Positions 1,029-15,228 of a DNA stretch of 64,000 bases are shown here, piece by piece. The stretch's first letter is position 1. The number at the start of each line of letters is the position of its first letter. The notes under the pieces were generated by a model that saw only the letters and a program-made list of their open reading frames with translations, was not told the origin of the DNA and searched no databases. The position numbers were made by a program, and so were the translations under genes. Where the stretch lies: IMG/VR virus record IMGVR_UViG_2585427773_000003; one strand, written 5' to 3'. The stretch comes from a virus. Taxonomy: Duplodnaviria; Heunggongvirae; Uroviricota; Caudoviricetes.

Positions 1029-1388
1029 TTAACCTTTTTTCATCAACTCTCGTTTGATTTCATCGGTACGCATCGTGACATCGGCAGCTGTGATCGCCTC
1101 GTTAAGTTTCACGATGTCCTCGATTTCCTGCGGTGACTTCTCTGCCAGATGGAAAATGGCTGCGCGAATCACGTCTGAACGGGTGAATTTCTCGAAGCGA
1201 GGGATGAACTTCATCATCTCCAGCAGTTCGAAGTATTCGTCCTCCAGTGACATTGTGCGGCTTTTAATTTTCTCTTTGCCACGAGTCGGGCGTCCCTGTG
1301 GTCTGACTGGTTGGCGCAAAGGAGTTGTGTTCTTAGCCGGTGCATCAGGCTCTTTGCGCTTTGCTAGGTCACCCATTTTCATGGACAT
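1029..1388 (-). CDS. Small partition protein, ParG-like RHH centromere-binding partner of ParA
   Basis: 119 aa, basic disordered N-terminus then predicted strand-helix-helix; start ATG overlaps parA stop (TAATG coupling). Confidence 0.5.
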   Translation of the reverse strand: MSMKMGDLAKRKEPDAPAKNTTPLRQPVRPQGRPTRGKEKIKSRTMSLEDEYFELLEMMKFIPRFEKFTRSDVIRAAIFHLAEKSPQEIEDIVKLNEAITAADVTMRTDEIKRELMKKG

Positions 1389-2056
1389 TATTCTTCTTCC
1401 TCCAGACTCAACAGATAATCTACAAATTCTTCAAACTCGGCTTCCGCCTTTTTGTCGCGCTCGCTACCGGTCATTTCAAAGATAGAGCGACCAGACTCTT
1501 CCGCATCATCATAGACGTTGCGGTTATATAGATTGACTGGCGCAGACTCGATTCCAAACGTCTCAACAATCTCTTTAGCCGCCAGAATGCGAGACACTTG
1601 TGATGGCAAAGCCGGGCACTGGTTCATGACCGCGCGGACCTTCACTTTATCGTTTACATTGCGAACATTGTCGATAATAGGATCGATGTCACGTAAAGAT
1701 TTCAAATCACGACGCTTAGGACGCAGCGGGATAATGATAACGTCAGCCATCAGCATCGCTTGTCGCTGAATTTCGGAGTCGAAGCCACCAGCATCTACCA
1801 CTACAAACTCAGCTCTACCCTGAAGCGATTTTAGGTGCTTAATGATGTCATCCTGAACGTATGCAAAAGGAATCAGCTCAAGGTCTTCGTTCTGTCGACG
1901 GTCTTCACACCAGCTCGTTGTCGTGCGCTGAATATCTATATCGGTAATATAAACCTTCTTCTTCTTTTTGACTTTCAGGCAAACGGCAATTTGCTGGGCA
2001 ACGGTGGATTTGCCAGGCCCGCCCTTTGTGCCGCCAACCACAAAGATCTTGGTCAT
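1388..2056 (-). CDS. parA: ParA-family partition ATPase (small, type Ib-like)
   Basis: Deviant Walker A GGTKGGPGKST near N-terminus, 222 aa; RBS aaggga upstream. Confidence 0.8.
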   Translation of the reverse strand: MTKIFVVGGTKGGPGKSTVAQQIAVCLKVKKKKKVYITDIDIQRTTTSWCEDRRQNEDLELIPFAYVQDDIIKHLKSLQGRAEFVVVDAGGFDSEIQRQAMLMADVIIIPLRPKRRDLKSLRDIDPIIDNVRNVNDKVKVRAVMNQCPALPSQVSRILAAKEIVETFGIESAPVNLYNRNVYDDAEESGRSIFEMTGSERDKKAEAEFEEFVDYLLSLEEEE

Positions 2057-2374
2057 TGGAGAGTTCCCTTTGCGTATATAATTATCGTCTGAAACAACTT
2101 GTTTTCTTATATGTGATATAGCCTAAATGCCTACGGCTGCGGTGTAAAGGTTAAATGGTAGGTTGTGATTAACAATTGGCAAACATAGCTTGTATTTGTC
2201 TGTTGAAAAAAGTAACAATGACATCTATATTACAAGTACGGTGATATGCCGTACACAATTTGATAATGCACACGTAATGGGCTATAGCCTTTTAAAGTAA
2301 TTTTTGAGTCGAAAACTCAGTTTGAACAGAGGAGATTGATGGCCTTCCTACATCACGGCCATCAGGAGGAATAC

Positions 2375-2644
2375 ATGTCAGCACTAAAAAAGCAGCGCAT
2401 CGATTTGAGATTAACCGATGACGATAAAAGCATCATCGAGGAAGCTGCCGCAATGTCTAACCAGAGCATTACTCAGTTTATGGTTAGCAGTGCATCTGAA
2501 CGTGCCGTGAAAGTTATAGAGCAACACCGTAGACTAGTTCTGAATGAAGAATCCTGGAATCTGGTTATGGACGCTATAAGCAATCCTCCGGCACCGAACG
2601 ACAAGCTGAAACGAGCTGCTGATCGTCTGAAAAGCATGGAGTAG
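2375..2644 (+). CDS. ataR: DUF1778 antitoxin (AtaR/TacA-like)
   Basis: MSALKKQRIDLRLTDDDKS...NEESW motif pattern of DUF1778 antitoxins; RBS aggagga; alternative start at 2339. Confidence 0.75.
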   Translation: MSALKKQRIDLRLTDDDKSIIEEAAAMSNQSITQFMVSSASERAVKVIEQHRRLVLNEESWNLVMDAISNPPAPNDKLKRAADRLKSME

Positions 2645-2651
2645 TTTACTC

Positions 2652-3173
2652 GTGAGCAATACAACGATAGAGATTTTCTCTGGAGAGAAAGATTATGATC
2701 TAAACGGTTTTGATTGCGGCGAAGAGTCACTAAACGCCTTTTTAGCCAACCACTTAAAAAGGCAGCATGAGGGAAAAATTCTTCGTGCTTATGTGCTTTG
2801 CACTCAAGAAGAAAGGCCAAAAGTGTTAGGATATTACACTTTGTCAGGTAGTTGTTTTGAAAAGGAGTCCTTACCTTCAAGAAGCAAACAAAAGAAGGTT
2901 CCTTATCGGAATGTTCCAAGTGTTACTTTGGGTAGGCTGGCTTTGGACAAGTCCCTTCAAGGTCAAGGATTTGGCTCAATGCTTGTAACACATGCAATGC
3001 GCGTTGTGTACAATGCATCTCTTGCTGTAGGCATTCATGGACTTTTCGTTGAGGCGTTAAATGACAAAGCCAAGGCGTTTTATAAAAGTTTAGGCTTTAT
3101 CCAGCTGGTTGGTAACAACGAGCGTTCTTTGTTCTATCCTACAAAATCTATCGAAAAATTGTTCGACGAATAA
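2652..3173 (+). CDS. ataT: GNAT acetyltransferase toxin (AtaT/TacT-like tRNA acetyltransferase)
   Basis: GTG start; YDLNGFDCGEE, LGYYTL, SVTLGRLALDKSLQGQGFG motifs as recalled for AtaT-family toxins; 8 nt after antitoxin stop. Confidence 0.75.
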   Translation: MSNTTIEIFSGEKDYDLNGFDCGEESLNAFLANHLKRQHEGKILRAYVLCTQEERPKVLGYYTLSGSCFEKESLPSRSKQKKVPYRNVPSVTLGRLALDKSLQGQGFGSMLVTHAMRVVYNASLAVGIHGLFVEALNDKAKAFYKSLGFIQLVGNNERSLFYPTKSIEKLFDE

Positions 3174-3594: not shown

Positions 3595-4287
3595 TTAGAC
3601 CATCCCTTTCTGGTGTTTTCTTACCTGCGACCAGGCAATGAATCCTGCCACAACAATAGTGGCAATACCGAAGATGATGCGTACTGTATCCCCGCTAGAG
3701 ATATGACCTTGTGCTTTATCCATAGCAGCGGAAACCTGCGGCATAACATCGGCCAGCTGCGCCAGACCAATACCTGCTGTAACAGTTGCGCCTGCGGTTT
3801 CTTTAGTTACAGGAACAGCCTTCACGGTTTTCACCGGCTTAACAACGCCAGCTCGACGCAGACCTTCCTCAATAACTTCTGCCGCATACCAGGTGTTCAG
3901 CGTTTTTAGCGGGCCTCGGCCATTCTCGTGGCGAATGATTGCCTCAACCAAAGGTCGAAGGATGTCGTAATCATGCAGATCGATGATCATGTCTGCGGTT
4001 ACACCAACGGCTTTAGACACCTCATTAATGTAGGCGTCAGTATTGTTTTCATTCGGCGGTGCCCAGCGTTCAATAACTTCACGAATGGTATCGATACTTG
4101 TGCCGTCTTTTGCGCGACGTTTATCGTGGTAGGTAATTAGAGTCACCGCCAGCGCACGAATCCCCCAAACAGGGTCTTTAAACGTGCAAAAGCGCGGTTC
4201 GGCAGGGTTGTCGATTAGCCCCTGCCACGGCGAACCTTTGTCGAGGTTGCCAGGGTTGTTATTACGAATGCCTCTCGGAGTTTTCAT
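3595..4287 (-). CDS. Putative lysin / peptidoglycan hydrolase-like protein with C-terminal membrane anchor
   Basis: Position in lysis cassette; GIRNNNPGNL motif; C-terminal hydrophobic helix; strong RBS aggaga before ATG at 4287. Confidence 0.45.
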   Translation of the reverse strand: MKTPRGIRNNNPGNLDKGSPWQGLIDNPAEPRFCTFKDPVWGIRALAVTLITYHDKRRAKDGTSIDTIREVIERWAPPNENNTDAYINEVSKAVGVTADMIIDLHDYDILRPLVEAIIRHENGRGPLKTLNTWYAAEVIEEGLRRAGVVKPVKTVKAVPVTKETAGATVTAGIGLAQLADVMPQVSAAMDKAQGHISSGDTVRIIFGIATIVVAGFIAWSQVRKHQKGMV

Positions 4288-4300
4288 CCTTGATCTCCTG

Positions 4301-4624
4301 TTATTGCAGTCCATTCTTCACGCCATAAGCGGCCAGACCCAGCAGCAGCGCGGTAATCAGGAACGACGTTATCTTTGAGATAATGCCGCCAAAGAACCCG
4401 CTGGAGATGGCGTCTAGCCGATTAAGTAGTTTGTCCAGGTTGGAGTGCTGAATGCTGTGTTGCGAAGGCGTCATATCGCCAAAGTAGGTTTTGAGCTGGT
4501 CGTTGACCTCCTGGCCAATTTCCTCACGCAACTCCTTACCTAATTTGCCGACAACTTCACGCGCAACGATAGCGGCAATGCGCTCTACCTGCTCTGGCGT
4601 TACGCCTGCCATCTCGTTCGACAT
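4301..4624 (-). CDS. Putative holin-like membrane protein
   Basis: About 107 aa, single C-terminal TM segment, first gene of lysis cassette; RBS ggagg before ATG at 4624. Confidence 0.35.
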   Translation of the reverse strand: MSNEMAGVTPEQVERIAAIVAREVVGKLGKELREEIGQEVNDQLKTYFGDMTPSQHSIQHSNLDKLLNRLDAISSGFFGGIISKITSFLITALLLGLAAYGVKNGLQ

Positions 4625-4690
4625 TATTTCCTCCATGAATCGTCAAATCGGGATGGCGGTTTTATATCATAAAACGCCCACACTTGGTAG

Positions 4691-4702
4691 GTAAGTACTT
4701 AC
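4691..4702. promoter_or_regulatory. Palindrome GTAAGTACTTAC (late-region operator family)
   Basis: Perfect 12-bp palindrome 55-66 bp upstream of holin-like start; same family as sites at 23868, 43437, 63069 and others. Confidence 0.5.
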
Positions 4703-5538
4703 ACATGAGCGCCGTAAATTGCCCCAACTTTAGTCCAAGTTGGAGCATTACCAGTAACAGCTTTACCAGCTGCTCCGCCGTTATATTCTGTACCGTTACC
4801 TTGAGTATTACATCTTCCTCCAGCAGCACCGACATTACCACCCGAACCGCCTGTATATGCACTAAGAGACCCCTCACCAACAGATCCTTTACCAGGAGCG
4901 GAAATAGTACCAGCAGTTGCACCGGAACTCATATGAGAGGAAGACCCACCAGCACCGAATGGGCGACCACCGCCGCCGCCAAATATTAGTTTACCCCTGT
5001 TACCGCCGCCACCGCCGCCGCCACCTCCAGCGATTGCACCATTATTCGTAATACGCAAGCGTGTACCGATGCCATTATTAATTGCGTTACCACCAGCAGC
5101 ACCGGCAGCGTTACTACCACCATTGCCACCGCGTCCATAGACAGTCACACCTGCGTTGATTACAAGGCTGATATAAGAGTTGGTAAGTGAACTCGGGAAA
5201 TCTAAACATGGCACGCCGCTACTGGACGACACCAGATCCCCTGTAATGGTAACAACGACTGGCGTCGCCCCCTGGGATTTTAAATAGTTGATCAGTGTGT
5301 CTTTGTTGTAGTTATGATTCGCACCGATGCTGTACTGAATTTCCTTAGAACGACCTGCTAACTGAGACATATTCCCAGCAGCAGACAATTGCACCGCCGT
5401 TCGAGCTGCACTCATCCATCTCTGGCCTGTCACACTGACAGCCGAAGACCCAATCCAACCGGGAACACCGACAATTGGCACATCTAATCTCCTTTTTGAT
5501 GTGAATATCCTGAATTGGTGAGGGGGGCCCCTCACCAT
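4699..5538 (-). CDS. Glycine-rich tail-fiber-associated protein (possible receptor-binding tip/adhesin)
   Basis: Immediately follows tail fiber gene with RBS aaggtga; poly-Gly tracts (GGGGGGGGGN) and G/S/N/T-rich composition. Confidence 0.4.
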   Translation of the reverse strand: MVRGPPHQFRIFTSKRRLDVPIVGVPGWIGSSAVSVTGQRWMSAARTAVQLSAAGNMSQLAGRSKEIQYSIGANHNYNKDTLINYLKSQGATPVVVTITGDLVSSSSGVPCLDFPSSLTNSYISLVINAGVTVYGRGGNGGSNAAGAAGGNAINNGIGTRLRITNNGAIAGGGGGGGGGNRGKLIFGGGGGRPFGAGGSSSHMSSGATAGTISAPGKGSVGEGSLSAYTGGSGGNVGAAGGRCNTQGNGTEYNGGAAGKAVTGNAPTWTKVGAIYGAHV

Positions 5539-5547
5539 TCACCTTGA

Positions 5548-8500
5548 TTACATTTTTGCCTTCAGTTCGCGCACTTCCTCGCGCAGCTCTTTGACAGCCT
5601 CGACCAACATGCCGATAACGCCGTTGTAGTTAAGACGCAGACGAGGCTCTCCTGACTGATCGTTATGGTCAACCGTTACCAGTTCAGGCTGAACATTCTG
5701 GACGTCCTGAGCGATGAGGCCGCCAGACTGCTCATACCGGTCACAGACCTGAATCTCGTACAGAACACCTTCGATCCGATCCAGCTTGTCGAGCGCTCGT
5801 TCAATCTTGCGAATATTGCGTTTGCTACGACGGTCAGAGCGGATATAAACGTCATTAAAGCTGCCATTACCGCCACAAACCCAAGTACCATCATTCTGGA
5901 GGTATGCGTTCGCATCCGTGCCGTTTGCGGTACGTGAGTTGTTGATCATGTAAAAACCAAACTGACTGTTTCCCAAGCCACCCAAGAAGAATTTGCGATC
6001 CGCGTGGTCTTGTCTCAACAACGCTTGTGCAGAGCTTGTACTTACAGCGTTCCTCCCGAAGATGACGTTCTGGTTACGCATATCTATCCACGCGCCAGAG
6101 CCGCTGTTGATGGAAAAACGGTTGGCGTAAACCCACGCACTTGACGTGATGTCACCCGTTACACTCAACGGCTTAAGGCTTTGCAGCGTGCTATTAACGA
6201 ACCTAAAAACATGGGCGCTATTGGCGTAAACATCCAGAATGCCATCTCCGTTCTGTTTAAAGCCGGTGTCATTGTCACCCAGAACAATGGAATTACCGCC
6301 AAGAGCACTGGATGTACCGATGCCCAGTGCACCATTCAATTGACCTCCAGATAATGATAACGCCCCAACATCAGCAGCAGTCGGTTTAATGTGCGAACTG
6401 TAAATTACATATACAGTTCCATCTGTCAGGCCTGTTGGTTTATTCGCTGTATAAGTTGGTGATGTATGAATCGTTACGCTGGCGTTACTGGTATAATCCC
6501 ACTGGATATTAACACCTGTGGCGTAATTACCTATTTCTACATAAATGTCATAGGTATCACCGGATGTATTCACCCATGCAAAATTAGTAAATCCAACCGA
6601 GGTCCGTCGCCATAATGCACCAGTAATACCTTTGGGGTTCCCATTTCCTGCACGCAGAACCAGCTCAGAGATGCCTGCTTGCTGCGGGGAGCCAACGTTA
6701 AACCCTGCGCCACCAATCAGGCTTATGTAAACCACGGAACTGGCTTGTGGCATGGTTACAGTTGCCAGCTTGAACCATCCGGCACCACCACTAAAAGACA
6801 TTGTTGCTGAGTTGATCGTGCCTATAGACCTTGGAGTTAGCTCAATGTTTTTAGAACCGTCAAACGACACCCCATTTATAGTTCTAGCGGTTTGTAACTT
6901 GGTCGCTGTCGCTGCATTACCGGTTGTGTTCTGGTTACCAGCAATGTTTACACCCGGCAGGTTGATATTGGCGGAGCCATCGAATGACACGCCGCCTATT
7001 GTGCGTGCTGTTTGCAGTTTTGTTGCAGTTGCAGCATTACCGTTCAAACTACCATTGATGCCGCCAGTAACATTGAGTCCATTACCGATCGTAACAGCAC
7101 CGCTGGTATTATTAATTATAATAGGTCGCAAACCGTTCCATGAACCTAATGTGTCTCCTGATGCTGTTAGCATGAAATATGTGTTCGATCCATCATTACG
7201 GATAAAGAATCCATAGTTGCCATAGGCAATGCGCAGACCATTCGCCGATTTTGAAATAATCTCGCCAGCAGCAGTTAATCCGCCAGTTAACGCTCCTCCA
7301 GAAAGCGATAATGCTCCTACATCAGAAGCTGTTGGTTTGTTTCTAGTGTTATAAGAACGACGCCAGCCTGGCGCATAATCACTCCCATTGTACACATAAA
7401 TAAATTCCGCATTATTAACACCACCATGACCTGATGTTGTTGTCGTTGTAACACGAATAGTGTAGTGGCTTGTTGACTTATTACTAAACACCTCAATCAC
7501 GGAACCAGATAGATCGATCCTACCGCAACCAGTGTCGTCTATATAATTATTGTTGGCGTAAGCCCATGAGCACCGTGCAATCCAATATTTGTTTGAAAAT
7601 GCACCCTGATTATTTAGCCAAGTTATAAATTGAGCAGTCGTAAATGCCGTTCCGTTACCACTATTTAACCATCCAGCGGCAGCGGTTGGCGCGTTTATAT
7701 CAGCCGGCTGAGGCATAAATCCAGTCGTGTAAACCTGCTCCCAACCACTTTCAAAACCATAGCCATCTCTTGAGGAACGGTAGAACAGACCTCCATTTTT
7801 ATAGTGAGCTTTAATTTGAAGCGTACGGCAACTACCTACACCGGTATAAAAGTTGGCAAGAATATAACTTTCGCCTGTTCTAACTACATTGTAAGCACCA
7901 GATTCAGCATTCCACGGCACGCCACCATCAGCATCAGCATATGACCCTGTTGCTCTTCTTGCGAAAGCGGCAACATGCGCGGCGGTTAAAGTAATATCTT
8001 TGGAACCATCAAACTCAACACCAGAAACCCGTCTTGGCGTTTGCAGCTTTGTTGCTGTTAATGCATTACCGTTCAGACTTGCGGACAGTTTGGTTCCAAT
8101 AACCAGTTCGCCGGTTGCGTTATCAATAGAAAACGGTCTTAATGTATTCCAGCCACCATAAACATCACCTTGATTGGTAAGCAGCAGGTGAGTTTTAGCG
8201 CCATCATTACGCCATAATGCACCATACTCCCCACCTATCATTCGAATCTGATTACCACCACGCGCTACAATTTCGTCTGTGGCAAAAAGTTTTTTGCACG
8301 ACAAGTTATCGTTAACGATTAACGAATTAGACTCATAAAAACCACGCCCACTCTTAAAATCAAGGATAACGTCCGCCGCGATACATTCAGTCGCCGGATT
8401 TGTTGCCCCAAACTTATAGGTCGTATCATTAACAACGAGATCAGCACCAGGTGCGGATATTGACAGGCCATCTTCGATAAACGCAAAAACAGGGAAAGCT

Positions 8501-10401
8501 GCGCCATCAACATAGAACACAGAGCGCAAATCATCGCCCTTATTACTCATCATTATTGAGTGGATGGCTCGTTCATTGTTTTGATATTGCCAGAACATTC
8601 CATAAGCATAACGCCCCCTGTCAGTCCAGCCGCCAGGCATAACAAATCCGTTAAACTCGCAGTTATTCATCGGATCGCCTGCGGTTCGCGTTGCCGTGGT
8701 GATAATGACCCTTGATGCCAGTTCGCTTACTGAGCCAGCAGAACGCATAACAACAACAGGGTAATATTTTCCAGATGTTGCACCTGCAGGAGCGTTAACC
8801 CGCACATAACGCATACCACGCTTATCAGCAAAGTCTGTTTTACTGACCGCGTTAATGTTGTTCAGGAAGCGTCCCTTATCGGGTATATCAGCGCCGTTCT
8901 GGTCTTTCTGCAGACGTTTCTCTGCATTGTCATAGGCTGATTTTACTGCCTTTGGCGTTGCCGCCAGCGTTTCAGACGTACTGTTGGTCGCACTGCTGAG
9001 CTGTACTATCCCCTTTTTCGTCGTGCTCGCATCCTCAAGCGCCACGGCGGATGCAATATCCTCTGCCCGTTTTGCCGCTGTCTCGGCGCGCGTTGCCGCG
9101 GATTCCGCCGTACTTTTGCTCTGTGCTGCCGCCGTCGCACTGCCAGCTGCCTCTGTCGCCTTCGTGGATGCTGTCGTGGCGCTGCCCTTCGCTGCGGACG
9201 CTTGTCTGGTCGCCTCATCTTTTGAAGCAGACGCAGATGATGCCGATGACGCCGCCGAACTGGCGGACGATGCGGCAGCCGTTTTTGAGGATTCTGCGCT
9301 GGTTTCCGACGCTTTCGCGTTCGTCTCGGATGTCTTCGCTGCGGAAGCAGACCTCGCTGCTGCGCTGGCCTGTTCAGTGGCTTCGCCAGCCTTCGTTGTG
9401 GCTGTTGAAGCAGACGATGCGGCACTTTCTGCCGATTTTCCGGCGGCGGTGGCACTGGCTGAGGCCTGCCCGGCACTTGTTGACGCGGCACTGGCAGACG
9501 ACGCAGCCGCTGTTTTTGAGCCTGCCGCAGCCGAGGCGCTCTGTCCCGCTGCCGTTTCAGAAGACCTGGCGTTTGTCTCAGACGTCTTTGCCGCCTTCGC
9601 GGAATTGCCTGCCGCCGTTGCCGAGGAAGCGGCACTACTGGCGCTCGAGGCTGCGTTAGTTTCTGATGATTTCGCTGCCTCTTTTGAGGCCGCCGCATCC
9701 CGGGCTGAGGTGGCAGCTTCTGACGCTTTCGTGGTCGCGGTGGATGCAGAAGTGGCTGCAGATTTTTGTGACGCTGCAGCATTCGTTTCAGACGTTTTCG
9801 CGGCACCGGCACTGGTGGCCGCCGCGCTTTTTGAGGACTCTGCAGCGGATGCACTTTGAGACGCTTGAGAGGCTTTTTCTCCAGCGGTATTGGCGCTTTC
9901 TGCTGCTGCGGCAGCACTGGCCGCCGCCTCACGAGCTTTGTCGCCAGCAGCGTCAATCGCGTCGGTGTTATTTTTATACCACTCAACGTTTTCGTTGTGC
10001 TCGTTGACAATCTGTATCAGCGGCTTAACGGTCACTTCTGTACCGTCTTCACGCTCGATTGTCACCTCATCCAGCGCAGTCAACCAACTGCGCATGGACT
10101 TGGAATCAGCCGACATACGCGACATTAGCGCAGTAAAGCGCGCGCTAAACTGTGTTAAGTCGCCTTCATAGGTCGTAATGATTCGGCACGGAACCTCAGA
10201 CTGAGTTTCGCCGGTATAAGGTTCTGAGAGAACAATATTCGTATCGCTTATTACGCGCTTGATCTCATACAGCTTATTGTCGGGGCCAATGACGATCATC
10301 CCCGGCAACACACCATTAGCTGTTACGTTCCAGGCTGTCCCTGCCCCAACCAGAGTATTGCTACCCTGTGTAAATGTGATAGTACCTTCCCTGTACCACA
10401 T
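5548..10401 (-). CDS. Long tail fiber protein with C-terminal intramolecular chaperone (peptidase S74-like) domain
   Basis: 1617 aa; Ala/Ser-rich low-complexity coiled segment; C-terminal SDRRSKRNI...IAQDVQ...VEAVKELREEV pattern typical of self-cleaving chaperone domains. Confidence 0.75.
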   Translation of the reverse strand: MWYREGTITFTQGSNTLVGAGTAWNVTANGVLPGMIVIGPDNKLYEIKRVISDTNIVLSEPYTGETQSEVPCRIITTYEGDLTQFSARFTALMSRMSADSKSMRSWLTALDEVTIEREDGTEVTVKPLIQIVNEHNENVEWYKNNTDAIDAAGDKAREAAASAAAAAESANTAGEKASQASQSASAAESSKSAAATSAGAAKTSETNAAASQKSAATSASTATTKASEAATSARDAAASKEAAKSSETNAASSASSAASSATAAGNSAKAAKTSETNARSSETAAGQSASAAAGSKTAAASSASAASTSAGQASASATAAGKSAESAASSASTATTKAGEATEQASAAARSASAAKTSETNAKASETSAESSKTAAASSASSAASSASSASASKDEATRQASAAKGSATTASTKATEAAGSATAAAQSKSTAESAATRAETAAKRAEDIASAVALEDASTTKKGIVQLSSATNSTSETLAATPKAVKSAYDNAEKRLQKDQNGADIPDKGRFLNNINAVSKTDFADKRGMRYVRVNAPAGATSGKYYPVVVMRSAGSVSELASRVIITTATRTAGDPMNNCEFNGFVMPGGWTDRGRYAYGMFWQYQNNERAIHSIMMSNKGDDLRSVFYVDGAAFPVFAFIEDGLSISAPGADLVVNDTTYKFGATNPATECIAADVILDFKSGRGFYESNSLIVNDNLSCKKLFATDEIVARGGNQIRMIGGEYGALWRNDGAKTHLLLTNQGDVYGGWNTLRPFSIDNATGELVIGTKLSASLNGNALTATKLQTPRRVSGVEFDGSKDITLTAAHVAAFARRATGSYADADGGVPWNAESGAYNVVRTGESYILANFYTGVGSCRTLQIKAHYKNGGLFYRSSRDGYGFESGWEQVYTTGFMPQPADINAPTAAAGWLNSGNGTAFTTAQFITWLNNQGAFSNKYWIARCSWAYANNNYIDDTGCGRIDLSGSVIEVFSNKSTSHYTIRVTTTTTSGHGGVNNAEFIYVYNGSDYAPGWRRSYNTRNKPTASDVGALSLSGGALTGGLTAAGEIISKSANGLRIAYGNYGFFIRNDGSNTYFMLTASGDTLGSWNGLRPIIINNTSGAVTIGNGLNVTGGINGSLNGNAATATKLQTARTIGGVSFDGSANINLPGVNIAGNQNTTGNAATATKLQTARTINGVSFDGSKNIELTPRSIGTINSATMSFSGGAGWFKLATVTMPQASSVVYISLIGGAGFNVGSPQQAGISELVLRAGNGNPKGITGALWRRTSVGFTNFAWVNTSGDTYDIYVEIGNYATGVNIQWDYTSNASVTIHTSPTYTANKPTGLTDGTVYVIYSSHIKPTAADVGALSLSGGQLNGALGIGTSSALGGNSIVLGDNDTGFKQNGDGILDVYANSAHVFRFVNSTLQSLKPLSVTGDITSSAWVYANRFSINSGSGAWIDMRNQNVIFGRNAVSTSSAQALLRQDHADRKFFLGGLGNSQFGFYMINNSRTANGTDANAYLQNDGTWVCGGNGSFNDVYIRSDRRSKRNIRKIERALDKLDRIEGVLYEIQVCDRYEQSGGLIAQDVQNVQPELVTVDHNDQSGEPRLRLNYNGVIGMLVEAVKELREEVRELKAKM

Positions 10402-10494
10402 GTTGAATATGCTCCTTGATTTAGCGGGTTATCCTTGCCCGCCATTAAGTAAATACTTACCTATTTTTACCGATATAAAATTTTTTTTCCACCA

Positions 10495-13400
10495 TCACAG
10501 ACGGCCAATTCTTACTCGTAGGACGTTGTTATCGTCATAAACGTCAATCCGCTGACCATTTATAACCAATCGCCCATTGCCGCCGCTATTACCGTTGATC
10601 TCAAGCGTTCCATTTTTGCCGAACCGCCATCCAGATCTACCGCTAACAAAATTGGTAGATTGCAGATCGCCTACTTTTGCATTGGTGATTGTGCCATCCT
10701 TGATATACGCTCCATTCATATAGGCGATACTGTTTTCGATAACAAATGGCGTTGTGATCTTCCCGTTAACAGAGTTGACCAAACCAAACCTGTCCGCCTG
10801 AACCAAAAACTGAGATAGCCCAGTGGTGTCAATACCAAGCGCAATACCGGCAACATACTTCTGCCCTCCGCTCGTTGAAGTCTCCATTTTCAACGTCCAC
10901 GCGGTTGATACTTTTTTGTTGGTATCAGCAATAGCTGTTGCCTGCTGTTGAATTGTCGCGGTATTTCCATCCACCTCTGCTTTCAGAGTATCGATTCGCC
11001 CACTCAGAGCATTATCTGCCTGCGTTCTCGCTGTCGTTTCAGTTGTTACCGCCGCGGAAATGTTGGCTGCCGTTTGAGACTCTAAGTTTGTGATTTGAGT
11101 CGCCAATGCAGCATCTTGCTCTGTACGCGTTTTCGTTTCGGTTGCTACAGCCGCTTTAATATCCTCTTTGTATTGAGAGGTCAGCTTGGTGATCTGAGAC
11201 GACAACGCCGAGTCAGCATCAGTTCGAGCCTGCGTTTCAACTGCAACGGCCGCACTAATATCTTTCGCTGTCTGTGCTTTTAAACTTGAAACCTCTTTTG
11301 TTAAAGCGGTATCACCATCTGCACGAGCCGTTGTTTCTCTGGCAAGAGACGCCTCGAGATCATTAGCTTTTGCTGTAAGAGACGTAATCTGGGTAGACAA
11401 TGCACTATCGGCATCAGTCCTTGCTTTTGTCTCTACAGCAACCGCTGCGGCAATATCAGTTCCGGTTTGTGCTCGCAGGCTGTTAATTTCTCGTGAGAGC
11501 GCCTGGTCAGCACTTGCTCTGGCCTCCTGCTCCTGAGTGATGGCAGCGGATATATCACCGTCAACCTTTGACTGAAGCTGGTTTATTTGTTTGGCTAACG
11601 CAGAGTCCCCGCTTGCTCGGGCCTCCTGCTCACTACGTATTGCAGCAGAAATATCATCATCAACCTTTGCCTGAAGTTGGGTGATCTGGCTTGCCAGAGC
11701 CGAATCTTCCGTTGCTCGGGCTTCTTGCTCTTCCTTAATAGCTGCGACGATATCGTTGCTTACTTTCGACTCAAGCTGAGTGATCTGTGTCGTCAGAGCT
11801 TCATCGGCAGATGTACGAGCCTCCTGCTCTGTACTAATCGCCGCGCTGATATCTCCTTCAAACTTAGATTGCAGCTGAGTGACACGCTTTGCCAACGCTT
11901 CATCGCCATCGGCACGAGCGGTGGACTCTTCCAGAATACTGGCCTTAATGTCTTCGCCAATTTCTACGCGAATTTCCTCAACCTTCGTGGCCATTGCAGA
12001 CATATCATCAGCAAAGGTTTTCTGTGTTGTTGCGATCTTCGCGTTATTGACCATCTGCTTGTGCTGGTCTTCATCTTGACGAAGAGCCAGGTCAATATTT
12101 GTTTTGGCTAACGCCTCAATGTTCGTAGTCAGTTCTGCACTTGCACGATCGACCTCTGCAACCGTCTTTTTCATTTCTTCAACGGCAGCGGAGCTTTCCT
12201 CTACCGTTGACTGCAACACTTCCAGTTGTTTAGCGTTTGCAGCATCGCCTTCAACACGAGCCTCGCTTTCCTTAGCAATAAGAGCCGCCGCTTCATCTCT
12301 TGCAGCCTTTATTGCCTCGACTGTATTAGCGAGAGCTTTATCGTGTTCAGATACGGTGTTTTCGATTTCAACAATTGCAGCATCAGTGGCATCAATTTTT
12401 TCAAACGCTTCATTGACCTTGTCGATCGTTGCCGAAACCTCACCTTTAAGCTCGGTTTGTGCGTTCTCCAAAGCATCGCTACGCTCGTTGAATTTTATTT
12501 CAAAACCCGCGAGGTTATCGTTGAACTGCTTATCTAATTCAGCTATATCTTCCTTAACGTCGTTTACCGACCCCTCCAAAGATTCGACGCTCTGGTTGAT
12601 ATGCTCATTTAACTCGTCAACTGCTTCTTGAGAGGCTTTGCTGTTGATGTCCTCAAGCAGAGCCTGACCAAGCTCGGAAGATGTAATTTTGCCAGTCAGG
12701 AACGACAGTACATCGCGAGTTGTCGCCTCTGTACCCAAATTTGAGTTCGGAGGACTTAACATACCTCGCTTGTTCGATGCTCGAACCCAGTAATACCACG
12801 TTTCACTATCCCCAAGACCAGCATGTGTAAAGGTGGTGCTTGCAGACTCTGCGATCAGTTTCGCCGTATCCAGATTGTTGGTCTGGGATGCGTAAACATT
12901 AATGTGATCAAGGTCTACCGAATCTGGATTAACCCAATTCAGTATCACATTACGATAGTCTCCAACGGCCGTTAATGACGTTGGTGCATCCGGCGGTGTC
13001 ATTGTGCCCAGCACCTGATAAACGGTACTGATAATTTCTGTTTTTTTACCGTTGAATGAAACCGCATACAGTTGGAAGTCGTAGCGTCCATTCTCCGCGA
13101 CATTAACGATTTCGTATTGCTCTTCGGTTACACGCGCCGATTGCCAGTTCGATACATTGTTTTCATCAGAACGTCGCCAACTGATCCAATACTCTGGAGA
13201 TTTCCCTTCCCATGTTGCAGTCAGTTTTACTGACAGGTTGCCAGGGCTTGAGAGATAAGTCCCTTCGGTTATTTGCAAATTAGACGGCTTGGAGTAAGTC
13301 GGGTCCAATACCGTCGTATTTTGCGGGATAAGCGTTGCACCATTGTCGATCGCCTCATATTTAGACGGATTGTTCTCAACAGCGGTGATGTCAAAGCTAC

Positions 13401-15228
13401 CCGGCGTTTCCCCCTGCGCGATGTTAACGATGCGAACACGCATAGGTTCGAGGTCTGGTTCTGTAATAGTCCAGACGCCGTTCAAAACAGGCGTTTCAGC
13501 CGAAGACAGGGATTTTGAAAACGTAACTTTTGTTATATTTTCGCCAGTTTCAAGAACATCGCGTTCAACGATTTTGCCTTCCTGATTCAGTATTCGAATA
13601 AAGCAGCCGCCTTTGGCTAACGACACCGGCGCATCGAGTGTGACGCTGTTTTTGGTAAACGCCACAATTCGACCTGAGTTACGTTTGCCTGCGCGATATT
13701 TGTTCTGAATCAGAACGGTTTCACCAGGCATCAGAAATGACGCGTCTAAGCCGGCAGTAAATGTAATTACATCCGACTCCATTCTGGCGGTATATAAAAG
13801 CCACAAACCAACTCGGTGAGCCTGCCCTCGGCTTGTACAGCCAAATGCTACGACTTCTGTTTTACGCTCACCATAACGGCGCATTGCGTCCTGATCTTCG
13901 ACGTACTCGATGTTTTGCTTATAACCGTCCTCCTTGTTGTTGTAGGTTACGAGCGCAACGGATGGGCGATCTTTACGCGCAGAACCTTTATAGGTAAACA
14001 ATCCATCTTTGACGTTAGAGTTGGTAAACATCATTACCGGATCTGATGGGCTATCCTGCATGATGTTAACCATCCCACCAGCCCAAAACACCATGCCGCG
14101 GAATGCTCCGGCAATATCCTGAATTAGCCGGTATGCGTCCTGTCGACTGGTGATCTGCGTATTGATTGCAAAGCGTTTCTCTTTGCCACCAAAGCCATCA
14201 TCGACCTCTTCGTCACAATATCGACCAATCTGGTACAACTGGCCAAGGTCAATCATAGATTCCGACACATACTGACCAAGGCCATATCGAGCATTGGTCA
14301 GCAAATCAAAGAGAATCCACGCGGGGTTCGAAGAAGACAACAGCTTAAAAGTGCCATCCCATACCCCAGCGTAAGTGTTACTGGACTCGTTATAGTTTGA
14401 AGGTACTCGAATTTTTAGGCCACGCACCAGATAAGAGCGAGATGGCATGGTGCTGCCGAATTGCTCAGAGTTTACCTTCAATCCAACCAAAACAGAGTTT
14501 GGATAGTTCATCGGTGTATCGACAATTTCCCCGATTGAATCCACCCATGTATCGTTATAGAGATACTGGCTACTGTTATCATCGGTAATACGGACCACAC
14601 GAACCTTGTATGCTCGTCCAGGCTTAGGCAGCTTCAGCTCATAGCTACGGTAATAAACGCCGGTCTTCTTTGCTGTTAGCTTAATGCCAACGCTTTTTTC
14701 ACCTTCAGCGACCACATCTACAAATGTTGAGTCGCCATTTGCTATCTGGAACTTGTACTCAACAGTCGTACCGTTCGTGTCACCAGTTTTTTTATCTATG
14801 CTTCGCAAAGAAGGAAACTTCATGATGACACGAACCCGATCAGCTTCATCGTTATCGATTGAAACCGTTACATAATGTGTTTTTTTTAACTGGATATTGA
14901 CGGATTTAGGCGTTTCAACGAAATCAAAGCCAGACATTGGAGTCTGGTCTTGTGAACCGTCGCGAAAATCCCATGTGATTCCGCTGAAGTTGGAGGAACC
15001 GTCTTCATTTACAATCGGCAGATCGTCGATAAAAATAGATCTTGCGCCATTTACTAAGCCGCCAATTACCCCTTCCCCAAGAAGATCGAGGATAGCGGCC
15101 ATTGCACGAGAATTTACGGTATCGTCGGCTTCAACCGGTGTACGGCTGGAGCTTTTGCTGCTTTTTTTACCACCCGCACCGGCAATAAACAGCGGTAGCT
15201 TTTTCTTCTTGAACTGTTCCATGTTCAA
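10495..15228 (-). CDS. Tail tip / host specificity protein (lambda J-like) with long coiled-coil repeat region
   Basis: 1577 aa; N-terminus resembles lambda J; about 12 tandem repeats of roughly 24 aa (DISAAI..EQEAR..AD.AL); start TTG at 15228 or ATG at 15222. Confidence 0.8.
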   Translation of the reverse strand: MNMEQFKKKKLPLFIAGAGGKKSSKSSSRTPVEADDTVNSRAMAAILDLLGEGVIGGLVNGARSIFIDDLPIVNEDGSSNFSGITWDFRDGSQDQTPMSGFDFVETPKSVNIQLKKTHYVTVSIDNDEADRVRVIMKFPSLRSIDKKTGDTNGTTVEYKFQIANGDSTFVDVVAEGEKSVGIKLTAKKTGVYYRSYELKLPKPGRAYKVRVVRITDDNSSQYLYNDTWVDSIGEIVDTPMNYPNSVLVGLKVNSEQFGSTMPSRSYLVRGLKIRVPSNYNESSNTYAGVWDGTFKLLSSSNPAWILFDLLTNARYGLGQYVSESMIDLGQLYQIGRYCDEEVDDGFGGKEKRFAINTQITSRQDAYRLIQDIAGAFRGMVFWAGGMVNIMQDSPSDPVMMFTNSNVKDGLFTYKGSARKDRPSVALVTYNNKEDGYKQNIEYVEDQDAMRRYGERKTEVVAFGCTSRGQAHRVGLWLLYTARMESDVITFTAGLDASFLMPGETVLIQNKYRAGKRNSGRIVAFTKNSVTLDAPVSLAKGGCFIRILNQEGKIVERDVLETGENITKVTFSKSLSSAETPVLNGVWTITEPDLEPMRVRIVNIAQGETPGSFDITAVENNPSKYEAIDNGATLIPQNTTVLDPTYSKPSNLQITEGTYLSSPGNLSVKLTATWEGKSPEYWISWRRSDENNVSNWQSARVTEEQYEIVNVAENGRYDFQLYAVSFNGKKTEIISTVYQVLGTMTPPDAPTSLTAVGDYRNVILNWVNPDSVDLDHINVYASQTNNLDTAKLIAESASTTFTHAGLGDSETWYYWVRASNKRGMLSPPNSNLGTEATTRDVLSFLTGKITSSELGQALLEDINSKASQEAVDELNEHINQSVESLEGSVNDVKEDIAELDKQFNDNLAGFEIKFNERSDALENAQTELKGEVSATIDKVNEAFEKIDATDAAIVEIENTVSEHDKALANTVEAIKAARDEAAALIAKESEARVEGDAANAKQLEVLQSTVEESSAAVEEMKKTVAEVDRASAELTTNIEALAKTNIDLALRQDEDQHKQMVNNAKIATTQKTFADDMSAMATKVEEIRVEIGEDIKASILEESTARADGDEALAKRVTQLQSKFEGDISAAISTEQEARTSADEALTTQITQLESKVSNDIVAAIKEEQEARATEDSALASQITQLQAKVDDDISAAIRSEQEARASGDSALAKQINQLQSKVDGDISAAITQEQEARASADQALSREINSLRAQTGTDIAAAVAVETKARTDADSALSTQITSLTAKANDLEASLARETTARADGDTALTKEVSSLKAQTAKDISAAVAVETQARTDADSALSSQITKLTSQYKEDIKAAVATETKTRTEQDAALATQITNLESQTAANISAAVTTETTARTQADNALSGRIDTLKAEVDGNTATIQQQATAIADTNKKVSTAWTLKMETSTSGGQKYVAGIALGIDTTGLSQFLVQADRFGLVNSVNGKITTPFVIENSIAYMNGAYIKDGTITNAKVGDLQSTNFVSGRSGWRFGKNGTLEINGNSGGNGRLVINGQRIDVYDDNNVLRVRIGRL

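Follow-up and report, generated by a model that had tools for sequence, protein, structure and literature searches.

A probable T2-type receptor-recognition module on the side tail fibre of an SSU5-like siphovirus phage-plasmid

The long tail fibre tip of T2- and S16-type phages (PDB 6F45; Dunne et al. 2018; Trojet et al. 2011) is carried by virulent myoviruses of the Straboviridae on a fibre made of four proteins, gp34 to gp37, and the literature presents gp38-type adhesins as a feature of that family. T2-type gp37 sheds a self-cleaving chaperone domain and then takes up one gp38 monomer (PMC9569957; PMC6851490), and three tryptophans at the helix apices of gp38 plug into the trimeric fibre tip (PMC6851490). 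Salmonella phage SSU5 has a fibre, gp21, and a 'tail fiber adhesin', gp22. T5 pb1, which provides the precedent of a Ser1264/Lys1269 dyad (PMC4690869), and K1F also have a C-terminal chaperone that closes in a helix and has the Ser and Lys of its dyad five residues apart, but in these phages the mature fibre or spike makes the receptor contact itself and the processed end carries no adhesin cap. The fibres of lambda (Stf) and Mu (S) fold with a separate downstream assembly protein, Tfa or U.

The window, a 64-kb stretch of DNA, is by its sequence part of an SSU5-like siphovirus phage-plasmid. It is 97% identical to CP053388.1, a circular 107.6-kb record, and shares its synteny with SSU5 and Cyrano: J, fibre, (adhesin), holin, endolysin, ParA. 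The J-fibre-adhesin-holin-endolysin block lies beside partition and replication genes on a non-mobilizable replicon of ~100-120 kb, as in the pHCM2/SSU5 group. The fibre and adhesin genes are both on the minus strand, and the ORF list of the window shows the adhesin gene followed immediately by the holin gene, with neither Tfa nor cor nor anything else in between (Table 1). We consider it highly probable that the locus as a whole is the receptor-recognition module of this phage-plasmid. The pairing follows the usual gp37/gp38 layout of T2-type phages, moved onto the fibre of a siphovirus phage-plasmid, a point that an earlier sequence-only reading of the DNA had missed. It shares with the T2/S16 tip the fibre-then-adhesin order, the chaperone junction VYIR|SDxRxK and the gp37-like tip motif, but here the carrier is temperate and a single side fibre near a J-like tip takes the place of the four proteins. 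Because both the fibre and the adhesin match characterised families and solved structures (E 1e-47 to 1e-81), the observation is not due to chance.

Table 1. Features of the fibre-adhesin locus and its neighbours, in window coordinates
Feature	Position	Strand	Basis
J-like tail tip / host specificity protein, adjoining the fibre gene upstream	10495..15228	-	Pfam Phage_Tail_Tip, Phage-tail_3, FNIII-A_GpJ
Side tail fibre gene, 1617 aa, mosaic	5548..10401	-	ORF; Pfam Gp34_trimer 1e-54, Peptidase_S74 1.5e-10
Fibre N-terminal region, aa 1-150	9952..10401	-	tblastn alignments from residue 1
Ala/Ser/Thr-rich low-complexity rod, aa 151-460	9022..9951	-	39% Ala, 23% Ser, 11% Thr
Patch 96% nt-identical to lambdoid Stf (PhiR34_1, mEp332, 2H10, ev099)	7751..9877	-	fibre residues 175-884
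Gp34_trimer-type domain, aa 997-1096	7114..7413	-	Pfam; PDB T4 gp34 4UXE/5NXF, Mu S
T2-gp37-like distal tip motif LGGNSIVLGDNDTGFKQNGDGILDVYAN..VFRF, aa 1358-1413	6163..6330	-	60% aa identity to gp37 of 236Ecol005PP
Mu-S-like insertion of ~100 aa, aa ~1414-1516, between the tip motif and the chaperone	5854..6162	-	5YVQ_A residues 334-445, E 2.5e-36
Intramolecular chaperone domain, aa 1522-1617; predicted cut Arg1521/Ser1522, partner Lys1527	5551..5838	-	Pfam, structure alignment, Ser/Lys dyad
GC-rich hairpin in the fibre-gp38 spacer, GGUGAGGGG/CCCCUCACC	5517..5536	-	z = -2.8 for the 91-nt context
AGGAG ribosome-binding site (5493-5489), 7-nt spacer, GTG start (5481-5479)	5479..5493	-	sequence
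gp38-type adhesin gene, 260 aa	4699..5481	-	PF05268 1e-70, PF21721 6e-15, phrog_2056 5.5e-93, 6F45_D 1e-47
gp38 N-terminal region, aa 1-62, including the attachment domain; Trp9, Trp22, Asn37	5296..5481	-	alignments
Polyglycine sandwich / hypervariable-loop cassette	4724..5124	-	97% nt-identical to T-even phage Bas45; T-even-like GC3
Holin (4301-4636) and endolysin (3595-4314), directly downstream	3595..4636	-	ORFs, PHROG, homologous SSU5/Cyrano locus annotation

The fibre matches 55 PHROG tail-fibre families and, in the PDB, Mu S, T4 gp34 and S16 gp37, and it is a patchwork of segments common to the fibres of SSU5, lambdoid (Stf), Mu (S), P2-like and T-even phages, with the modules in the order SSU5-type N-terminus, rod, Mu-S-like and gp34-like modules, T2-gp37-like tip and Peptidase_S74 chaperone. 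Alignments from residue 1 run into the Cyrano fibre (89% amino acid identity, aa 1-520), the Enterobacter pHD8642-1 fibre (75%, aa 1-302) and SSU5_021 (62%, aa 1-442), and L014 carries the same N-terminus, which may serve in attachment to the tail. The 1617-aa reading frame and the Ala/Ser-rich segment that the sequence-only reading had placed at about 9000-9900 were both recovered, the latter as the rod; its DNA has a GC content of 0.59-0.63 and a strong AT skew, and a search for a DNA tandem repeat in this region found none. The closest relative, CMS-2020a, lacks the portion of the Stf-like patch that covers aa ~494-777. The fibre shaft was probably exchanged recently with the Stf genes of lambdoid prophages. 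Three segments of the fibre match Mu S (5YVQ, 8JU3). Pfam Gp34_trimer also reports a further matched stretch in the fibre, beyond the domain listed in Table 1. The distal tip motif aligns in addition to residues 21-55 of S16 gp37 (6F45_A). In T-even gp37 this motif is directly contiguous with the chaperone domain, whereas here the Mu-S-like insertion, which T-even gp37 lacks but the fibres of SSU5 and Enterobacter have, lies between the two.

SSU5 has the same genome type and locus, and the C-terminal 266 aa of its gp21, including the Mu-S-like insertion and the chaperone, are 93% identical to those of our fibre, although the fibre shafts are unlike. Its gp22 has the same gp38 N-terminal domain but is only 178 aa long, with a non-glycine C-terminal domain (phrog_1121) replacing the polyglycine sandwich, and three extra genes, including cor, precede the holin. 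The likeness to lambda and Mu lies in the fibre sequence. Here gp38 is the sole gene between fibre and holin and has no match to a Tfa family in Pfam or PHROGs, in contrast to PhiR34_1, where Tfa follows Stf. In this locus the chaperone domain and gp38 fill the functional place of Tfa.

A C-terminal intramolecular chaperone had been proposed from the letters alone, and the sequence match, the Ser/Lys dyad and the fold all bear this out. The Peptidase_S74 match covers residues 1522-1576 at 41.7 bits, against a curated cut-off of 22 bits, and the domain aligns to the chaperone of S16 gp37 (6F45_A) and to 8JOV. Ser1522 and Lys1527 lie within SDRRSK with the S+5 spacing of T5 pb1 and are invariant in the alignments that we made, and the junction VYIRSDxRxKxN is invariant across all of the gp38-partner fibres compared, which come from four lineages. 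When a 200-residue C-terminal fragment was modelled as a monomer, the final ~90 residues reached block pLDDT values of 71-91, with fragment residues 175-199 forming a helix, while the pre-cleavage shaft was modelled poorly (pLDDT <50 over most of residues 1-111). Foldseek matched this model to the MyRF ICA domain (7DC3, probability 1.0, TMt 0.53-0.57, rmsd 3.0 A over 112 alignment columns) and to the endosialidase chaperone (3GW6, probability 0.98), and the monomer model thus has the predicted fold of a chaperone domain with its terminal coiled-coil helix. The fibre probably cleaves itself, freeing a 96-aa C-terminal folding domain. In the proposed sequence of events, the fibre would trimerise with the aid of its own S74-type chaperone, and once the trimer has folded, Ser1522, activated by Lys1527, would cut after Arg1521 and release the 96-residue fragment, exposing a fibre tip that ends in ...NGSFNDVYIR.

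The next gene was read earlier as encoding a G/S/N-rich protein with several runs of 9-10 glycines that resembles glycine-rich adhesin tips. The composition holds (G 23%, A 12%, S 11%, N 8%), but there is only one run of nine glycines and one of five, both within residues 121-240, which are 37% Gly. The resemblance proved to be specific, and by sequence and predicted fold the protein is a true T2/S16-type gp38 adhesin. PF05268 matches at 238.3 bits over profile positions 1-217 of 218 and PF21721 at 55.4 bits, against cut-offs of 25 bits each. The AlphaFold model (pLDDT 92.7, pTM 0.84) contains the three domains of gp38, an N-terminal helical bundle, a beta-helix and a polyglycine type-II sandwich, and Foldseek aligns it to 6F45_D of S16 (TM 0.83/0.86) and 9V85_C of PP01 (TM 0.76/0.89) and to no other PDB entry at E < 1. 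As in T2 and S16, glycine-rich motifs are present and the hypervariable loops make up the variable part that bears specificity. The gene is directly downstream of a chaperone-ended fibre gene, and the same pairing is found in T-even, SSU5-like and chromosomal prophage loci.

The start of gp38 is probably the GTG at 5481, giving 260 rather than 279 aa. It yields MPIVGVPGWIGSS..., the canonical gp38 N-terminus; PGAP gives the homologues the same gene length of 783 nt, and Pfam Gp38_N begins at residue 22 of the longer ORF. The spacer between fibre and gp38 is 66 nt, and its hairpin, which has no U-tract, is also kept in pHD8642-1. T-even g37-g38 spacers have a GC hairpin in the same place, but a different one. 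The ATG at 5538, which opens the longest ORF (279 aa), sits at the 5' base of the hairpin without a ribosome-binding site and is not the likely start.

One copy of gp38 would dock on the trimeric fibre tip through its N-terminal helical domain. In an alignment with S16 gp38, two of the attachment tryptophans are present (Trp9 and Trp22), but the third position is Asn37. This column holds W in 67 of 123 aligned sequences, Y in 30, N in 9 and S in 7, and because it varies in this way the third tryptophan is not universal in the gp38 family; N or S is typical for the phage-plasmid lineage. As a caveat on docking geometry, the Mu-S-like insertion, a difference from T-even gp37, lies just upstream of the docking end.

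The sequence-only reading had also suggested a hotspot of host-range variation, and the pattern of conservation agrees with it. In the phage-plasmid lineage, residues 1-62 of gp38 are 82-98% identical, whereas the polyglycine and hypervariable part ranges from 39 to 96% among full-length homologues and carries several distinct loop sets. In our gp38, the cassette is 99% identical in amino acids and 97% in nucleotides (nt 358-758 of the gene) to that of Bas45, while the upstream remainder is ~64% identical, with the 5' junction falling in the conserved motif YGRGGNGG. The hypervariable loops are those of Bas45 but for one Ser/Ala change, and the cassette is 86-97% nt-identical to those of RB49, JSE, FL18, FL20 and FL12. 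Taken with the patchwork of the fibre, these comparisons suggest that the module evolves through cassette exchange and that the loop-bearing part of gp38 was recently swapped with T-even phages. The cassette has a GC3 of 0.26 and the gene's 5' part one of 0.50 (Fisher p = 1.5e-4), compared with 0.23-0.30 in Bas45 genes and 0.45-0.50 in neighbouring sequence of the window. Because the third-position composition of the cassette is T-even-like, the most likely direction of transfer would be capture from a virulent T-even phage, an argument that uses only 133 codons of a glycine-biased segment.

Could the near-identity to Bas45 reflect convergence or strong conservation of protein sequence instead of recent recombination? 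Glycine-rich motifs are under constraint, and the stretch concerned is a short one of ~400 nt, but the 97% nucleotide identity includes synonymous sites, identity falls sharply at a defined junction, and the third-position composition differs from that of the gene's own 5' half, which makes this reading extremely hard to credit. We also find it very improbable that the protein is only a fibre assembly factor that stays outside the virion, like T4 gp38, with the distal domain of the fibre binding the receptor. Several database records do call homologues 'distal long tail fiber assembly catalyst'. However, T4-type gp38 is very different in sequence from the T2/S16 adhesin family to which our protein belongs (PMC6851490), the complete polyglycine sandwich is retained in the predicted fold, the loops diversify inside the lineage as a receptor-binding surface should, and the fibre has its own chaperone domain, so no separate assembly factor is needed. 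A decaying, non-functional remnant in a cryptic plasmid prophage might be expected from the many SSU5-like elements known as plasmids only and from the truncated gp38 and fibre fragments in databases (P0023, P0063 and P0098; a split fibre in pAMPD1). This too is very unlikely, given that both reading frames are intact, that the ribosome-binding site and start codon of gp38 are conserved, that the gene is 95-97% identical over 25 E. coli plasmids, and that the nearest record is filed as a phage. The glycine-rich ORF is conserved and under purifying selection, and its differences from T-even genes are largely synonymous, many of them in the 5' half. With the S74 alignment of the fibre C-terminus, this means that neither outcome named as a refutation in the sequence-only reading was seen.

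The polyglycine sandwich of a docked gp38 would present its hypervariable loops to an outer-membrane protein. The receptor is most probably OmpA, a prediction made because the cassette is near-identical to that of Bas45, whose dependence on OmpA has been confirmed by complementation (PMC8594841). RB49 and the FL phages (FL18, FL20 and FL12) are reported to use OmpA as well, so that, wherever the nearest cassette relatives have been characterised, the phage uses OmpA; our literature search found no receptor report for JSE. A minority possibility that we take seriously is that gp38 docks as proposed but that the receptor is not OmpA, or not OmpA alone, and could be an O-antigen or another outer-membrane protein; the Mu-S-like tip domain might add a second contact of LPS type. 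Certain O-antigens act as alternative primary receptors for RB49-like phages whose cassettes are 86-90% identical to ours, and in some resistant mutants OmpA complementation failed. The authors of that study questioned whether OmpA itself is the direct ligand. A few residue changes shift gp38 specificity (Trojet et al.), the isolation host of SSU5 was LT2, and the insertion shares homology with a portion of the tip region of the Mu S fibre. On the other hand, the loops depart from those of Bas45 at one residue only, and Mu S beyond residue 445 has no counterpart in this fibre. We retain OmpA as the predicted receptor, which gives a specific, testable prediction for this phage-plasmid family.

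More broadly, we lean slightly towards a view in which gp38-type adhesins are a portable cap for several unrelated temperate siphoviruses (SSU5-like phage-plasmids and E. coli and Enterobacter chromosomal prophages), all sharing the processed end ...VYIR, and in which the N-terminal gp38 domain is a universal adaptor for interchangeable receptor-binding domains, a polyglycine sandwich here and a non-glycine domain in SSU5 and L014, with the OmpA-binding cassette in our locus captured from a virulent T-even phage. If true, resident phage-plasmids and virulent phages of the type used in therapy would trade receptor-binding cassettes directly in co-infected cells. The T2-type pairing is textbook biology, and PGAP, the automatic NCBI annotation, already labels the gene "receptor-recognizing protein", so the finding opens no new field; what is unusual about this familiar system is its carrier. 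The recent cassette exchange, with its sharp boundaries, links a virulent T-even phage to a temperate plasmid-prophage and bears on how recombination can alter the host range of therapeutic T-even phages and of resident elements. The recurring combination of an adaptor domain and a processed fibre end with different receptor-binding heads marks a natural site for plugging in new specificities when fibres are engineered. The arrangement was found in 35 of 5,426 complete E. coli genomes (~0.6%), and all but one of these matches (34/35) are on plasmids, most of them 106-122 kb in size and many from pigs and poultry.

The side tail fibre and the glycine-rich protein encoded directly downstream of it constitute, judging from their genes and models, a gp37-gp38 system of the T2/S16 mechanism class. 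This supports the overall interpretation of the sequence-only reading, a fibre with a self-cleaving chaperone followed by a glycine-rich adhesin, and the gp38 gene had already been named by automatic annotation. What we mainly add is a predicted receptor, OmpA, and evidence that a receptor-binding cassette was recently captured from a T-even phage.

In this part of the window every gene is on the minus strand, and the 1617-aa fibre ORF is present as had been read. The region is 97% identical across 87% of its length to CP053388.1, a circular record of 107.6 kb named 'Escherichia phage CMS-2020a' that came from a commensal E. coli of human origin. The region also shares its gene order with Salmonella phage SSU5 and Escherichia phage Cyrano, in which the locus adjoins ParA, toxin-antitoxin and replication genes. 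On the basis of this synteny and identity we assign the window to an SSU5-like phage-plasmid. By annotation of syntenic loci, plasmid-maintenance genes (1029-3173) flank the fibre-gp38 locus here as well.

Features of the fibre-gp38 locus and segments of the fibre, with their matches
Feature	Position	Strand	Match or basis of assignment
J-like tail tip protein	10495-15228	-	Phage_Tail_Tip, Phage-tail_3, FNIII-A_GpJ (Pfam)
Side tail fibre ORF, 1617 aa	5548-10401	-	
Glycine-rich ORF, longest form	4699-5538	-	
Holin	4301-4636	-	
Endolysin	3595-4314	-	
DUF1778/GNAT (KacAT-type) toxin-antitoxin pair	2336-3173		Annotation of syntenic Cyrano and pAMPD1 loci
ParA homologue	1388-2056		Annotation of syntenic Cyrano and pAMPD1 loci
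RelE/ParE-like ORF	1029-1388		Annotation of syntenic Cyrano and pAMPD1 loci
Fibre segment	residues 1-493		Cyrano and CMS-2020a fibres, 92% nt identity
Fibre segment, Ala/Ser rod included	residues 175-884		Lambdoid Stf genes (PhiR34_1, mEp332, 2H10, ev099), 96% nt identity
Fibre segments	residues 438-518, 812-1023, 1005-1114, 1426-1531		Mu tail fibre protein S (5YVQ, 8JU3)
Fibre segment	residues 1028-1121		T4 gp34 trimerisation domain
Fibre segment	residues 1192-1398		P2-like Yersinia phages, 89-92% nt identity
Fibre segment	last 266 residues		SSU5 fibre, 93% identity
Fibre segment	last 247 residues		Fibre of Enterobacter plasmid pHD8642-1, 100% identity

The likeness of the glycine-rich protein to adhesin tips was confirmed by Pfam (GP38, 1e-70; Gp38_N, 6e-15), by PHROG (phrog_2056, 5.5e-93) and by structure prediction, and by both sequence and fold it belongs to the GP38 family. 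It matches the S16 gp38 chain of 6F45 (1e-47) and PP01 gp38 (9V85, 2.5e-37). Its AlphaFold model, built with 63 homologues, has a pLDDT of 92.7 and superposes on 6F45_D with a TM of 0.83-0.86 and on 9V85_C with a TMt of 0.89; a PDB search with the model gave no further meaningful match. The glycine richness stood (23% Gly), but of the runs of 9-10 glycines that had been described there is just one run of 9, and one of 5. The most probable start codon of the gene is GTG 5481, which has AGGAG upstream with a 7-nt spacer; translation from there begins MPIVGVPGWIGSS..., the canonical gp38 N-terminus, and the resulting length equals the 783 nt that PGAP gives for gp38 homologues. We rejected ATG 5538, which lies right beside a GC hairpin (5536-5517) and lacks a ribosome-binding site.

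[quoted passage not shown] Trp9 and Trp22 are kept here, and the aligned third position is Asn37. That position is Asn or Ser in the phage-plasmid lineage, Tyr in RB49-like phages and Trp in Tequatrovirus. The Asn is the single departure from the family pattern, at a position that varies across the family.

In the T-even gp37 proteins of Bas45 and 236Ecol005PP, the motif LGGNSIxFGDxDTGIKQNGDG...VFRF is almost contiguous with NVYIR/SDIRLK and the chaperone domain. The fibres of the window, SSU5 and pHD8642-1 keep both elements with about 100 residues between them, homologous to Mu S 334-445, and by this comparison the distal end reads as a modified T2-type gp37 tip. Loss of the third Trp as an adaptation to this modified tip was considered and rejected: the SSU5 adhesin retains the Trp on a tip that is 93% identical, so the tip does not impose the change. 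Fibres that precede a gp38 gene share an invariant junction, VYIRSDxRxKxN, in the four lineages compared (SSU5-like plasmids, Tequatrovirus, an E. coli chromosomal prophage and an Enterobacter prophage).

The C-terminal intramolecular chaperone that had been proposed is there: by sequence, catalytic residues and fold, the end of the fibre belongs to Peptidase_S74. The spacing between Ser1522 and Lys1527 (S+5) is that of the catalytic pair Ser1264/Lys1269 in T5 pb1 (PMC4690869), and the predicted cleavage at Ser1522 would free 96 residues. When the last 200 residues were modelled as a monomer with AlphaFold, the shaft part came out poorly (pLDDT below 50), and we used only the chaperone part (block pLDDT 71-91). 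Structures matching this 200-residue model are the MyRF ICA domain (7DC3, probability 1.0) and the endosialidase chaperone 3GW6. Loss of the self-cleaving chaperone domain from most T-even gp37 before gp38 attaches is stated as established (PMC9569957). Compared with the classical T2/S16 system, the pair here is carried by a temperate siphovirus phage-plasmid that has one long side fibre, this fibre has a Mu-S-like insertion ahead of its docking end, and the locus is without any Tfa-type assembly gene.

In residues 121-240 of gp38, which comprise the sandwich and loops, identity to the Bas45 (PaulHMueller) protein is 99%, with one Ser/Ala change in the loops in the alignment shown. Bas45 is OmpA-dependent, and this dependence was complemented (PMC8594841). 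Over a 363-nt cassette the nucleotide identity is 97% to Bas45, 91% to JSE and 89-90% to RB49, which is OmpA-dependent on K-12 (PMC9569957); it is 97% across 73% of the length to FL18 and 86-90% to FL20 and FL12, all three of them 'type 2' OmpA binders (PMC12032242). Because the cassette is so close to those of Bas45, RB49 and the FL phages, OmpA is most likely the receptor. An additional or alternative ligand is conceivable, since RB49-like phages also use some O-antigens (PMC9569957).

The similarity to Bas45 is confined to part of the gene. At nt 358-758 (window 4724-5124) there are 12 mismatches (97% identity), whereas identity is 64% at nt 1-339, and 11 mismatches fall in the final 25 nt. 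The 5' junction is inside the conserved glycine-rich motif YGRGGNGG, which fits the model of recombination within conserved motifs in T-even adhesins (PMC3157838). The patch has a GC3 of 0.26, against 0.50 for the 5' part of the gp38 gene and 0.45-0.46 for the fibre and J genes (Fisher test, p = 1.5e-4 for the patch against that 5' part and p = 1.7e-5 against the fibre); it is 0.23-0.30 in Bas45 genes and 0.41 in the Enterobacter-plasmid version of the patch. Since the GC3 of the patch resembles that of Bas45 genes and not that of the 5' part of its own gene, it points to acquisition from a T-even phage, a direction that we infer from a small, glycine-biased sample.

Relatives of gp38 occur in 758 records of the phage collection. 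Among the matches listed, these are large genomes of 114-183 kb, except for CMS-2020a and the 3.9-kb gene fragment KEP10, and the large ones checked are Straboviridae. PLSDB has relatives in 87 plasmids (Enterobacter 40, Escherichia 30, Citrobacter 13, Salmonella 3, Shigella 1), almost all non-mobilizable and mostly ~106-120 kb, and nearly all copies among the matches listed are annotated 'receptor-recognizing protein'. Complete E. coli genomes contain relatives in 35/5,426 cases, 34 on plasmids and 1 on the chromosome. A full-text literature search, incomplete in coverage, found no paper on gp38 adhesins on SSU5-like, pHCM2 or phage-plasmid elements; in a 2025 study (PMC12032242), Gp38 is handled as a protein of Straboviridae, prophages and temperate phages go unmentioned, and the word 'plasmid' comes up twice, neither time for plasmid-borne gp38. 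A genome-collection scan with the gp38 profile was dominated by polyglycine pattern matches, with two loci among the matches listed. One of the two, a 178-kb contig of a Flagellimonas marina assembly (L013, NZ_JBHSCL010000010.1), shares 92% identity with the T4-like Enterobacter phage phi5 and looks like assembly contamination, not a marine Bacteroidota prophage.

An S74-bearing fibre followed by gp38 is also found in siphovirus-like chromosomal prophages, one in E. coli (391-kb contig of GCA_020469005.1) and one in Enterobacter. In these two loci (L009, 5763-10777; L011, 7329-10786) the fibre carries Gp34_trimer or T4_gp36 plus Peptidase_S74, and the two genes sit with head genes on one side and a J-like gene on the other. 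In the E. coli prophage, the gp38 N-terminus is of the RB49/JSE type.

The sequence variation expected of a host-range hotspot is apparent among homologues: within the phage-plasmid lineage the first 62 residues of gp38 are 82-98% identical, against 39-96% for the loop region in full-length homologues, where there are several distinct loop sets. In SSU5 (178 aa) and in a metagenomic locus, L014 (158 aa), the gp38 N-terminal domain is fused to unrelated non-glycine C-terminal domains. L014 (2360-6462) has a 1209-aa SSU5-like fibre, with the N-terminus and chaperone junction of the window fibre, followed by the 158-aa adaptor protein, holin and endolysin. Because a conserved N-terminus is joined to varying or unrelated heads, the gp38 N-terminal domain appears to serve fibres ending ...VYIR as an adaptor with exchangeable receptor-binding heads. 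The 50-kb contig containing L014 is binned to 'Candidatus Fimivivens' and is probably a mis-binned enterobacterial phage-plasmid fragment.

The fibre itself matches 55 PHROG tail-fibre families and, by its segment matches, is a mosaic. Residues ~494-777, within the Stf-like part, are absent from the closest relative, CMS-2020a, and are therefore a recent replacement. The Ala/Ser-rich segment, placed by the sequence-only reading at about 9000-9900, corresponds to residues 151-460 (9022-9951; 39% Ala, 23% Ser, 11% Thr). Tandem Repeats Finder detected no DNA tandem repeat under it, just a 12-nt Gly-codon repeat inside gp38; the low complexity is one of composition and does not come from a recent DNA expansion. 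In pAMPD1 (L007, 3947-9184), otherwise the closest PLSDB plasmid, the annotation covers just an 883-aa C-terminal piece of the fibre and leaves a gap upstream of it; this may reflect a disrupted fibre or a pseudogene dropped by PLSDB.

Scans of 4200-10700 showed no sigma-70-like promoter, and terminator-like sites at chance level only. In the spacer between the genes, a perfect 9-bp, GC-rich hairpin (5517-5536, minus strand) directly follows the stop codon of the fibre and precedes the ribosome-binding site of gp38; we do not call it a terminator because it has no U-tract. It is kept in pHD8642-1 with a single loop change, and the equivalent position in T-even g37-g38 spacers is taken by another GC hairpin (AGAGGGC-UUCG-GCCCUCU), which suggests that the hairpins share a function in processing or stability of the transcript or in translational coupling.

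The 1577-aa J-like protein has a long insertion, especially about 10900-12700 (minus strand), that is Ala/Glu/Gln-rich with coiled-coil-like repeats of ~33-37 aa (DISAAI..EQEAR..AL..QITQLQSKV). Tandem Repeats Finder reports a 99-nt period at 11513-11730 inside this gene, and the SSU5 homologue is shorter by ~190 aa.
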